Below, in pieces: positions 48,134-53,750 of a stretch of DNA of 64,000 nt (position 1 is the first letter of the stretch; each line of letters opens with the position of its first letter). Position numbers and translations under genes: made by a program. Source of the stretch: Escherichia phage E26; sequence record MN655998.1; one strand, given 5' to 3'. The notes beneath the pieces are model-generated. The model did no database searches, had not been told where the DNA came from, and saw nothing but the letters and a program-made list of their open reading frames with translations.

Positions 48134-48532
48134 TTAAGCCAGTCGAGTGAGTTTATAAATTGTTTTAAAGCATAGAGCTTTGATATCGTCTAAAACACTC
48201 TGTAACGAGCTATCAACATCATTATAAATCTCACTAGCCATTTGCGTTAACTCTTGCAAATAGGCAATTTCGCTAATCTCCTTGCGGACGACCAACTTTG
48301 GCTGATAACGACCAGTGATCCCAATATTGGTTTCAGTGAAATTATCAACCAATTCTTGCATTTCAAGATAGAACTCTTCTAGAGCCTTATGTTTTGCATA
48401 AGATCCAGGACCAGTTACCCCAAAATGCGCAGAATGCATATAAGTAACACTCATCAGACATTCACCGATAAAGCGGTCAACTTTATTAGCCTTTCCCTCT
48501 TCGGAAGTCTTTAGAAAATCACTGAATTTCAT
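48134..48532 (-). CDS. hypothetical protein (start at internal Met)
   Basis: Track ORF 48134..48631; N-terminal 33 codons overlap neighbour. Confidence 0.4.
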   Translation of the reverse strand: MKFSDFLKTSEEGKANKVDRFIGECLMSVTYMHSAHFGVTGPGSYAKHKALEEFYLEMQELVDNFTETNIGITGRYQPKLVVRKEISEIAYLQELTQMASEIYNDVDSSLQSVLDDIKALCFKTIYKLTRLA

Positions 48533-48821
48533 GTTCTCGATTCTCCATATTATGCAACAGAACAAATTGTTGTGCGGCATATCCCCCCATAATAAAACAC
48601 TGCCTAGAATCCATACATTTACTACGAGCATACATCTTCATAATATGGGCATGAAATTTCTGGCTGGTTTCAATGGAAGGAGATATTTTGTTTACATATA
48701 CTATCATTGCGCCGTCGAAATAATCAGTAAAGTCACCAGTTGGATCATATTGATCAGCACTGACACTTCCGACCGCAGTCAAGCATATTGCCGCTGTTAG
48801 AGTTTTACGAATAAATGACAT
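48519..48821 (-). CDS. putative secreted protein
   Basis: N-terminal signal peptide MSFIRKTLTAAICLTAVGSVSA; TATAAATA late-promoter motif upstream. Confidence 0.4.
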   Translation of the reverse strand: MSFIRKTLTAAICLTAVGSVSADQYDPTGDFTDYFDGAMIVYVNKISPSIETSQKFHAHIMKMYARSKCMDSRQCFIMGGYAAQQFVLLHNMENREHEIQ

Positions 48822-48854: not shown

Positions 48855-48862
48855 TATTTATA
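48855..48862 (-). promoter_or_regulatory. late-promoter-like motif TATAAATA
   Basis: About 35 nt upstream of secreted-protein ORF 48519..48821. Confidence 0.35.
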
Positions 48863-50014: not shown

Positions 50015-50217
50015 TTACATTTAGGGCAATGCGGTTCTTTAATATAATACCCGTCTGTCTTTGGAACACTAACAGGAGCGGTTTTTATATTGTATTCAGT
50101 GAAACAACGAAAACAAGTTACGTTTTCTACAGACTGACGTTTCACCCAATCACCGGAATATAGATCATTTTTATTTGTCATATTCAACCACCACAATGTT
50201 AATGTCTGGAGTAGCAA
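49987..50217 (-). CDS. hypothetical zinc-ribbon protein
   Basis: CFRCF...CPKCKC. Confidence 0.4.
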   Translation of the reverse strand: MLLQTLTLWWLNMTNKNDLYSGDWVKRQSVENVTCFRCFTEYNIKTAPVSVPKTDGYYIKEPHCPKCKCRLYWSHL

Positions 50218-50626
50218 TATTAATGATCTCTTCTACACATTCCCACTCAAGGCCACCGATACCGCAACCGATTTTAGGAATATAGAAAGGCTGTATAGCA
50301 CCTTCAAAAACATCATTGATAGTCTCAAATCCTTTCAGGATAGCACCATATTCAGCATTTGGACCCGGTCGGAATTGGGTATAGAGATTCACCCCGCACC
50401 AGTTATAACCATTAACTTGATGCGTCCAGACACTAAACCCACCCAGCTTTTCTACCTTACCGCGAGAAGTTTGCTTGTCAATCTCTAACGCTTGCGGGAA
50501 CTCTTTCGCGATCTTTGCAGCAATACCAGCGCCCATAGTATGAAAACAATTACAACCATGAATTAAATGACCGTTTCCTTGTTTAAACAGGGCGATGAGA
50601 TCGTCCTTTACAGTATCAATAATCAT
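50171..50626 (-). CDS. putative macro-domain (ADP-ribose binding/processing) protein
   Basis: HGCNCFHTMGAGIAAKIA glycine-rich loop and about 150 aa size. Confidence 0.45.
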   Translation of the reverse strand: MIIDTVKDDLIALFKQGNGHLIHGCNCFHTMGAGIAAKIAKEFPQALEIDKQTSRGKVEKLGGFSVWTHQVNGYNWCGVNLYTQFRPGPNAEYGAILKGFETINDVFEGAIQPFYIPKIGCGIGGLEWECVEEIINIATPDINIVVVEYDK

Positions 50627-50641
50627 AATATAAACCTCTCA

Positions 50642-51001
50642 TTAGTCACGGGACGACAACCCAGCCATAAAACGGCTTAACAGTGTGTCGCGATAAGCAA
50701 AGCATAATTGCTTATCAGGGGCAGTATCACAAAGGTTGCGTTTTGTTTTAGCAAAGCTGGCAATACTCAGATCCCACGCTCGATTTTTTCGTTTTTCGTC
50801 TCGACCTTGTTTGTATGCTTCGTCGAGTTCGAGCGCGATAAAATCACTACACATGTTATCATCATCACAGAAAGTTTTAATGATCTTTTTGTTGATCTCA
50901 AATCCTTTGTATTCAAACTTTGGATAAGGGCGCTCATTACTAGCAAGCGCACCAGCCGAGAACATCATAGCAATCATAGCAATTATTGTCAACTTTTTCA
51001 T
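50642..51001 (-). CDS. putative secreted Cys-containing protein
   Basis: Signal peptide MKKLTIIAMIAMMFSAGALA; four Cys. Confidence 0.45.
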   Translation of the reverse strand: MKKLTIIAMIAMMFSAGALASNERPYPKFEYKGFEINKKIIKTFCDDDNMCSDFIALELDEAYKQGRDEKRKNRAWDLSIASFAKTKRNLCDTAPDKQLCFAYRDTLLSRFMAGLSSRD

Positions 51002-51008
51002 ATATTCC

Positions 51009-51599
51009 TCAATAGCGTTTAGTCTTAAGAATGCCTTTACTCTTTAGATGGTTAGCCTTTTTTAGTACGTCATCAGCATAACCTAATCCGGCTTTATAGT
51101 TCCATCCAGCATTGTAAGAAGCTAGCGCGAGTCGGATATTACCGTTTCTAACATCCAGCCAGTATGCTAACTCATCCATCGCGTAGAATGCAGAAACCTC
51201 GCGATTCATGATAAAGTTGATAGTCTGGCGATCACTCATTTTAACACCGCGCTTTGCATTTTTCGCTTTCACCGTTTTAAGGTAATTTTGAAATAATCCA
51301 TAAGCATGATGATTTTTCTTTGGTGCTAAGTTTGCACCCGCGCTTGATTCTTGCCATGCGATACCCGCCAGGATGTGGCCTAAACCCTTTCCGTTATAGC
51401 GAATATTCGGATGGTACTTTTTCAACTTACCGCTTTTCTCGAATTGCTCGCCGTATTGATAGGCGAAATGTAAATTATCTAGTTGGTGTGCTGTAAAGTT
51501 GTCTATCGGCGCTTTTTTGATCGGTGCGCTAGTCGATGCGTGTGTAGCACCAACGGCTAGTGACAGACTCAATACTATCGCTTTTAGAACTTTTAACAT
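51009..51599 (-). CDS. putative secreted lytic transglycosylase (SLT domain)
   Basis: Signal peptide; AWQESS...GLFQ...YNAG SLT motifs. Confidence 0.6.
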   Translation of the reverse strand: MLKVLKAIVLSLSLAVGATHASTSAPIKKAPIDNFTAHQLDNLHFAYQYGEQFEKSGKLKKYHPNIRYNGKGLGHILAGIAWQESSAGANLAPKKNHHAYGLFQNYLKTVKAKNAKRGVKMSDRQTINFIMNREVSAFYAMDELAYWLDVRNGNIRLALASYNAGWNYKAGLGYADDVLKKANHLKSKGILKTKRY

Positions 51600-51684
51600 T
51601 AATTTCTCCTGTTTGGCTTAACTTTCTGATTCCATAATATAGCCCTATCACCAGAAAGTCAAGCATTAATTTAACCAATTTCCA

Positions 51685-53664: not shown

Positions 53665-53710
53665 AATTAAACCCTCAGTTGATTAAGAGATTGCATCATA
53701 TCATCATAAA

Positions 53711-53737
53711 ACGAAAAAGCCAACCCTTTTTGGATTG
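53711..53737 (-). terminator. rho-independent terminator after grcA
   Basis: Imperfect stem AGCCAATCC/GGGTTGGCT + U-run. Confidence 0.4.
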
Positions 53738-53750
53738 GCTTGATGAAAAA

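Follow-up and report, generated by a model that had tools for sequence, protein, structure and literature searches.

What might two small proteins, apparently exported and made early in infection, do in the envelope of the host cell? The question is raised by two adjacent genes of Escherichia phage E26, vs.1 and vs, located on the minus strand of a stretch of 64,000 nucleotides from sequence record MN655998.1 (hereafter the window). vs.1 (51009..51599) encodes a precursor of 196 amino acids (aa), a predicted exported lytic transglycosylase of SLT/GH23 family 1, as judged from the open reading frame (ORF), orthology, Pfam and a structural model. vs (50642..51001) encodes a 119-aa precursor of a predicted exported protein with four helices and four cysteines; it is annotated as 'valyl-tRNA synthetase modifier', and its assignment draws on the ORF, phrog_1256, the annotation of phage JSE and a model. 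The interpretation that is somewhat favored here, on the strength of sequence-derived predictions, is that of an early, co-transcribed, exported pair, with Vs.1 acting as a periplasmic transglycosylase and Vs as its partner or modulator in the envelope.

The window is derived from a Krischvirus, i.e., an RB49/JSE-like T4-type coliphage. The 2.2 kb around the gene pair are 98.5-99% identical to phages MIZ4, JSE, Phi1 and RB49, and the window's Vs.1 is 98-100% identical to the vs.1 products of Krischvirus. The same two ORFs are annotated in the JSE record as vs.1 ('conserved hypothetical protein') and vs ('valyl-tRNA synthetase modifier'), with regB upstream of vs.1 and tk.4 downstream of vs. 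The order regB, vs.1, vs, tk.4 is shared with T4 itself, and in the window all four genes are on the minus strand. Already catalogued as early genes of T4-type phages, vs.1 and vs are represented here by their RB49-group orthologues, and both proteins are conserved at 27-55% identity over hundreds to thousands of phage genomes. A preliminary description of this DNA had located both ORFs correctly, and its account of two Sec-export-like proteins, of an SLT-type enzyme with a catalytic glutamate and of early transcription stands. It had further regarded such an enzyme as unusual for a phage that injects with a virion lysozyme; this part is withdrawn, since vs.1 and vs occur in T4 itself and are widely conserved, and the SLT match of vs.1 is already published (PMC1524935). 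The identity of the small partner as the 'valyl-tRNA synthetase modifier' gene was absent from that description.

Vs.1 contains the three SLT motifs that had been pointed out, AWQESS (aa 81-86), GLFQ (aa 101-104) and YNAG (aa 162-165), and thereby the Glu-Ser catalytic motif (E84-S85) together with motifs of the G-L/M-x-Q and A-Y-N-x-G type. The Pfam SLT model (PF01464) matches residues 76-167 with an E-value of 8.1e-6 and 25.8 bits, against a curated cut-off of 21.3; the match to phrog_600 is at 1e-59. Among 24 aligned orthologues, no variation is seen at E84, S86, H-x-AYG-x-FQN or SY-x-AG. The catalytic glutamate, left by the preliminary description to be checked by alignment, is present as Glu84 (codon GAA, 51348..51350, minus strand; motif IAWQES), the predicted catalytic acid/base, and is positioned at the end of a predicted helix in the model. 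In hhalign it falls on Slt70 Glu505 (precursor numbering; Glu478 after processing) and on MltE Glu64, at very low probabilities (0.5% and 0.2%, respectively) that make these alignments a guide to residue placement only; the two glutamates are the established catalytic residues of those E. coli enzymes.

The AlphaFold2 model of mature Vs.1 (predicted local distance difference test score, pLDDT, 86.7; predicted template modeling score, pTM, 0.84) has a goose-lysozyme-like helical fold. Its best Foldseek matches in the Protein Data Bank (PDB) are MltD and Slt of Pseudomonas aeruginosa and Slt70 of E. coli, with probabilities of 0.97-1.0, E-values of 0.02-0.2 and template modeling (TM) scores of 0.45-0.53; the 14 best PDB matches are all lytic transglycosylases (probability 0.75-1.0, E-value 0.02-0.2, TM score 0.40-0.53). 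A sequence search of solved structures gave no meaningful match for Vs.1 or Vs, and NCBIfam gave no match for either. The mature protein is basic (pI 9.9), of about 19.8 kDa, and consists of a single domain, in which a family-specific conserved N-terminal helix, F-x-x-x-Q-L-D-N-L-x-x-A-Y-x-Y-G, precedes the core matched by Pfam. A similarity of vs.1 to SLT was reported for six T4-like phages by Nolan et al. in 2006, citing earlier PSI-BLAST matches of the T4 protein, and was called marginal in that survey (PMC1524935). The motifs, the profiles and the modeled fold together suggest that Vs.1 is most probably an active transglycosylase.

T4 Vs.1 (ORF 61.4; phrog_600) is 52% identical to the window's protein over 158 aa and shares with it the position between regB and vs, the signal peptide and the SLT motifs. 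It is shorter (181 versus 196 aa), the window's protein having a slightly longer N-terminal linker after the signal peptide. Among cellular enzymes, MltE (EmtA) of E. coli has the same layout, a signal peptide followed by one SLT domain (about 150-200 aa) with a Glu-Ser motif, and a periplasmic site, which for Vs.1 is predicted. Vs.1 may also be likened to the 'specialised' SLT proteins of secretion and conjugation systems, VirB1, P19, IpgF and EtgA. It differs from MltE and from these proteins in being encoded by a virulent phage, in its early expression and in the additional conserved N-terminal helix; unlike the specialised enzymes, it has no known envelope-spanning machine to serve.

Both proteins begin with a predicted Sec signal peptide, in line with the preliminary description. 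That of Vs.1 comprises aa 1-21, MLKVLKAIVLSLSLAVGATHA (51537..51599, minus strand), with a basic n-region, a hydrophobic core and a small-x-small site, and a predicted cleavage before STS. That of Vs comprises aa 1-20, MKKLTIIAMIAMMFSAGALA (50942..51001, minus strand), with a predicted cleavage before SNE. Both calls are based on sequence features and on conservation among orthologues, using our own crude heuristic, in which a basic n-region, an uncharged hydrophobic core and either a small-x-small site or a lipobox are looked for. The heuristic was applied to the orthologues from IMG/VR loci, with 707 other ORFs of the same loci as background. A signal-like N-terminus was found in 38/38 Vs and 64/69 Vs.1 proteins and in 11.7% of the background ORFs, so that the signal-bearing pair is real and far beyond chance. 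The five failures of Vs.1 are probably mostly matters of start-codon choice; all rows of the Vs.1 orthologue alignment keep the signal-like N-terminus. In a CC31/Karamvirus-type clade of Vs, the type I signal is replaced by a lipobox (L-x-G-C, occurring as LSG|C, LFG|C, LLG|C or LVG|C), which predicts a lipoprotein in these phages. Full-length His-tagged T4 Vs was insoluble in the cytoplasm of E. coli in a 2021 survey that makes no mention of a signal peptide (PMC8076793); the insolubility is counted here in favor of export. A literature search found no report of a signal peptide in Vs. These features make it very probable that Vs.1 and Vs are both exported. The same heuristic also flags a run of roughly twelve tiny ORFs of 50-79 aa at 54800..60300 (minus strand); their N-termini are hydrophobic, and they look like small membrane proteins.

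Vs has exactly four cysteines, at positions 45, 51, 91 and 100, the number that had been described for this ORF. It is matched over its full length by phrog_1256 ('valyl tRNA synthetase modifier') at 1.8e-33; PF26829 is precomputed on all 38 Vs homologues, and the Pfam scan of the window's Vs did not report it. In the alignment of these 38 sequences six positions are invariant, namely the four cysteines and two glycines, and members outside the window's own group are just 17-35% identical to the window's Vs. The mature protein has 99 aa and 11.6 kDa. Its AlphaFold2 model (pLDDT 83.3) consists of four helices; Cys45 and Cys51 bracket the first helical hairpin, and Cys91 and Cys100 tie a loop to the last helix, from which we infer that two local disulfides, Cys45-Cys51 and Cys91-Cys100, are probably formed. 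Foldseek against viral models retrieved, at E ≤ 0.01, other Vs proteins only. A profile search run exhaustively over 1.84 billion protein representatives yielded 27 Vs relatives, all single-domain proteins of 77-134 aa, and no fusions or distant relatives from which a function could be borrowed. The model describes an orphan four-helix fold. T4 Vs (phrog_1256, PF26829) is the orthologue by profile and synteny and has the signal peptide and the four conserved cysteines, the second pair being CX8C in the window and CX10C in T4. The two are 27% identical, compared with 52% for Vs.1 of the same phages; Vs evolves faster.

In the spacer between regB and vs.1 a sigma-70-type early promoter for vs.1 and vs, TTGACT-17 nt-TATTAT, is predicted at 51634..51662 (minus strand; 10/12 matches in a consensus scan). 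The T4 record X04567 of 1986 gives a potential promoter before vs.1 (ORF 61.4) and just a ribosome-binding site before vs (ORF 60.9). The late-promoter motif TATAAATA was not found near the pair; the whole window contains two copies, one at rI and one at 59 kb, and a late promoter for the pair was rejected on this account. Because of the spacer promoter, the T4 record and the lack of a nearby late motif, early co-transcription is the best reading, and the early expression assumed in the preliminary description is borne out. The Shine-Dalgarno region of vs.1 carries GGAG (51606..51609, minus strand), a possible RegB cleavage motif, which T4 vs.1 lacks. Shut-off by RegB through this site was considered and not retained: 13/40 distinct upstream regions carry GGAG, and since it is not conserved in T4 or most relatives, its general importance is doubtful. 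A near-consensus sigma-70 site (TTGACA, 17 nt, TG-TATGAT; 11/12) is found within the first codons of vs (50964..50992, minus strand). Transcripts begun here would miss the start of vs and could supply tk.4; the site may also be a chance occurrence in AT-rich DNA.

Homologues of Vs.1 were found in 2085 phage records, including Straboviridae of many hosts, Ackermannviridae, Felixounavirus and large Aeromonas phages, and all homologues inspected have signal peptides. Examples are those of FEC14 (Ackermannviridae) and of VSe102 (Felixounavirus), in which the gene follows rIIA-rIIB. Vs is narrower in distribution, with 354 records for an RB49-type query and 796 for a T4-type query. Co-occurrence was taken from 69 IMG/VR loci encoding Vs.1. 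Vs is also encoded in 38 of them, in every case (38/38) on the same strand and with a start at -8 to +4 nt from the vs.1 stop; Vs is thus tightly coupled to Vs.1 where it is present. vs is also directly downstream of vs.1 in T4, STP4-a, KPV15, CC31 and Acinetobacter phage 133, and in one Klebsiella phage two unrelated genes sit between them. The other 31 of the 69 loci have no Vs within 4 kb, which argues that Vs.1 does not depend on Vs.

Aeromonas phage Aes012 has no Vs, and its Vs.1 shares 45% identity with that of the window; a different lipoprotein is encoded between its vs.1 and tk.4. The ORF concerned has 146 aa and what looks like a lipobox (..SIYG|C; locus L012, 3059-3499), and may be a non-homologous occupant of the vs niche. 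Of the 38 Vs-containing IMG/VR loci, 12 (e.g., L044, 4803-5204) have a third ORF for an exported protein, overlapping the vs stop; it is also seen at L006 1818-2219, L007 1740-2132, L008 1737-2156 and L009 1722-2141. It has about 130-140 aa, a signal peptide ending in ..NA|WEK(LPGYP) and two conserved cysteines; neither the window nor T4 has it. Since Vs, the Aes012 lipoprotein and this third ORF are all found there, the interval between regB and tk.4 appears to collect exported proteins. In the Klebsiella phage KPV15 (L007, 860-1423), vs.1 is annotated as a 120-aa fragment; the part of the N-terminus that it lacks is encoded in frame upstream, with the ATG shifted out of frame by one base at an A-run. 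The break is likely a homopolymer sequencing error or a real frameshift.

Fitness data for T4 are available from the HIDEN-SEQ preprint of 2025, in which vs was the most depleted gene in M9 glucose versus lysogeny broth (LB) and a clean vs knockout plated poorly on M9 glucose (bioRxiv 10.1101/2025.11.20.689424). Mean transposon insertion counts were taken from its supplementary tables, those for the LB control and M9 from Data S8. Counts for vs were 103.3 in the reference library, 26.6 in the liquid LB control and 5.0 in M9 glucose (33.9 and 23.0 in the LB samples of the RexAB experiment); the corresponding values for vs.1 were 75.7, 22.6 and 11.9 (15.0 and 22.8). The neighboring genes gave 259, 290 and 275 for tk.4, 230, 179 and 403 for regB, and 634, 652 and 626 for vs.3 (649.7 and 683.3 in the RexAB-experiment LB samples). 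By these counts, disruption of both vs and vs.1 is costly and disruption of their neighbors is not. The M9 effect for vs is a log2 fold change of -2.19 (adjusted p 0); that for vs.1 is -0.87 (p 0.0055, adjusted p 0.155) and is not significant after correction.

The early exported pair would operate as follows. vs.1 and vs would be co-transcribed from the sigma-70 early promoter in the regB-vs.1 spacer. Vs.1 would be made with a cleavable Sec signal peptide and released into the periplasm, where, with Glu84 as its single catalytic acid/base, it would attack the host sacculus from within the envelope before lysis, cutting bonds between N-acetylmuramic acid and N-acetylglucosamine. Vs would also be exported, would form its two disulfides in the periplasm and in one phage clade would be a lipoprotein; its place of action would be the envelope and its most likely role that of a Vs.1 partner or modulator, instead of a cytoplasmic role on valyl-tRNA synthetase (ValRS). 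The placement of Vs in the envelope is drawn from its predicted export, its predicted disulfides and the lipoprotein clade. That Vs is functionally tied to Vs.1 is given a little less than an even chance. What the data show directly is the identity of the genes, their sequence and fold features, their conservation and their synteny; export, enzymatic activity, the pairing of the disulfides and any contact between Vs and Vs.1 are deduced from these. A periplasmic wall-cutting enzyme made within minutes of infection would, if true, give the phage life cycle that is best understood a further, unstudied step. A literature search found no function assigned to Vs.1, although it is conserved in at least three families and in over 2000 virulent phages with known sequences, and a 2020 paper on T4 spackle counts two T4 lysozyme genes only, e and 5.

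Several observations weigh against this interpretation. In the classical genetic and biochemical work on T4, vs stands for a factor of about 10 kDa that binds the cytoplasmic ValRS. Nearly half of the Vs.1 loci do without Vs, as given above. The pI of Vs varies from 4.4 to 9.0, for which reason a conserved charge complementarity to the basic Vs.1 was rejected. The Foldseek E-values of Vs.1 are weak and its hhalign probabilities against single sequences very low. The depletion of vs.1 insertions could be explained by polarity on vs, with no role for Vs.1 needed, and the defect of the vs knockout in minimal medium fits a role in aminoacylation as well as a role in the envelope.

The best-surviving alternative, considered unlikely here, equates Vs with the classical tau factor, which would bind and modify host ValRS in the cytoplasm; its N-terminus would be unused for export, or a fraction of the protein exported, and its adjacency to vs.1 would be meaningless packing. 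The annotation is carried in all T4-type genomes, and tight or overlapping spacing is common among T4 early genes. The mass of mature T4 Vs, 11.05 kDa (precursor 13.06 kDa), is near the approximately 10 kDa of tau; this is not decisive. The T4 vs knockout is impaired specifically on M9 glucose, where amino acids are made de novo (bioRxiv 10.1101/2025.11.20.689424), and polarity can account for the weaker depletion of vs.1. Against these points stand the Sec-type signal in all 38 orthologues in spite of their low identity, its replacement by a lipobox in one clade, and the four invariant cysteines in CX5-6C and CX8-10C pairs, which are typical of oxidised periplasmic proteins. In addition, the 1986 sequence record names the gene 'ORF 60.9' only, and the full-length T4 protein is insoluble when expressed in the cytoplasm (PMC8076793).

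A ValRS modifier must reside in the cytoplasm, and on prediction Vs, with its export signal or lipobox and its invariant cysteine pairs, does not. The family name of T4 Vs implies cytoplasmic ValRS binding and conflicts with the predicted export of every member; this predicted conflict between conserved sequence features and label is the most interesting lead of the analysis. The predicted export lowers the functional ValRS label, and not the membership of Vs in its sequence family. The fuller proposal suggested by these features, that the 'valyl-tRNA synthetase modifier' ORF is an exported periplasmic protein, in some phages a lipoprotein, that works on the envelope together with Vs.1, is put forward tentatively, as a possibility with the balance still against it. 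If true, the minimal-medium defect of T4 vs mutants would be an envelope phenotype, and the classical ValRS-binding factor would either come from another gene or attach to ValRS only once cells are broken. With Vs in the periplasm, both the minimal-medium phenotype and a textbook assignment of fifty years would need re-reading; if the classical assignment stands, Vs is an odd signal-bearing protein acting in the cytoplasm.

A second alternative, raised in part by the preliminary description, makes Vs a spackle-like inhibitor, which would restrain the phage's own Vs.1 against a premature breach of the wall or block the muralytic enzymes of superinfecting phages. It starts from analogy with T4 spackle (gp61.3), the periplasmic inhibitor of the gp5 tail lysozyme. 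Like Vs, spackle is an all-helical, disulfide-bonded protein without fold relatives, made as a precursor of about 100 aa with a cleaved signal peptide of about 20 aa; for Vs, Sec export and disulfides are predicted, and the fold is likewise an orphan. Spackle has one disulfide and Vs two predicted ones, and there is no sequence or profile similarity between them, hhalign aligning the initial MKK only. Neither by sequence nor by fold does Vs resemble the known inhibitor families spackle, Ivy, MliC/PliC and PliG. No spackle orthologue was retained in the window, the sole tblastn match being inside gene 41 and spurious. The constant adjacency of vs to vs.1 and their apparent co-transcription, when vs is present, agree with an inhibitor, as does the faster evolution of Vs. 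So does the stronger M9 effect of vs insertions compared with those in vs.1, which leaves room for a partial relief by enzyme loss.

A simple toxin/antidote pair, however, predicts that vs.1 insertions are neutral, whether polar on vs or not, and they are depleted about 3-5 fold in liquid LB, like those in vs; such a pair is therefore disfavored. The T4 transposon sequencing data do not fit it, and remain compatible with a modulator role. Close relatives of Vs.1 in Aeromonas phages, Ackermannviridae and Felixounavirus are found without Vs, as in the 31 IMG/VR loci, no charge complementarity to Vs.1 is conserved, and T4 already has spackle. That Vs is an inhibitor of either kind is improbable, and the narrower claim that it is specifically an inhibitor is equally doubtful. 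The third alternative, that Vs.1 is a peptidoglycan-binding or structural SLT remnant and not an active enzyme, could appeal to a Pfam match just modestly over threshold, to the weak Foldseek E-values and TM scores of 0.45-0.53 and to the match described as marginal in 2006 (PMC1524935), and is very improbable, because a dead enzyme would not be expected to conserve Glu-Ser, G-x-F/M-Q and Y-N-A/S-G motifs that are invariant or nearly so over the homologues of Straboviridae, Ackermannviridae and Felixounavirus.

Some further features of the window deserve mention. The macrodomain ORF adjoining vs (50171..50626, minus strand) is the orthologue of T4 tk.4, which has been renamed AdfM in the HIDEN-SEQ preprint and is needed to resist the DarTG2 defence system (bioRxiv 10.1101/2025.11.20.689424). 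JSE has a homing endonuclease gene between nrdC.11 and vs.6 (L001, 6681-7211), at which site the window has an 86-nt spacer only (53665..53750). The orthologue of the lysis-inhibition gene rI (48519..48821, minus strand) encodes a signal-like N-terminus and is directly preceded by TATAAATA at 48855..48862 (minus strand).

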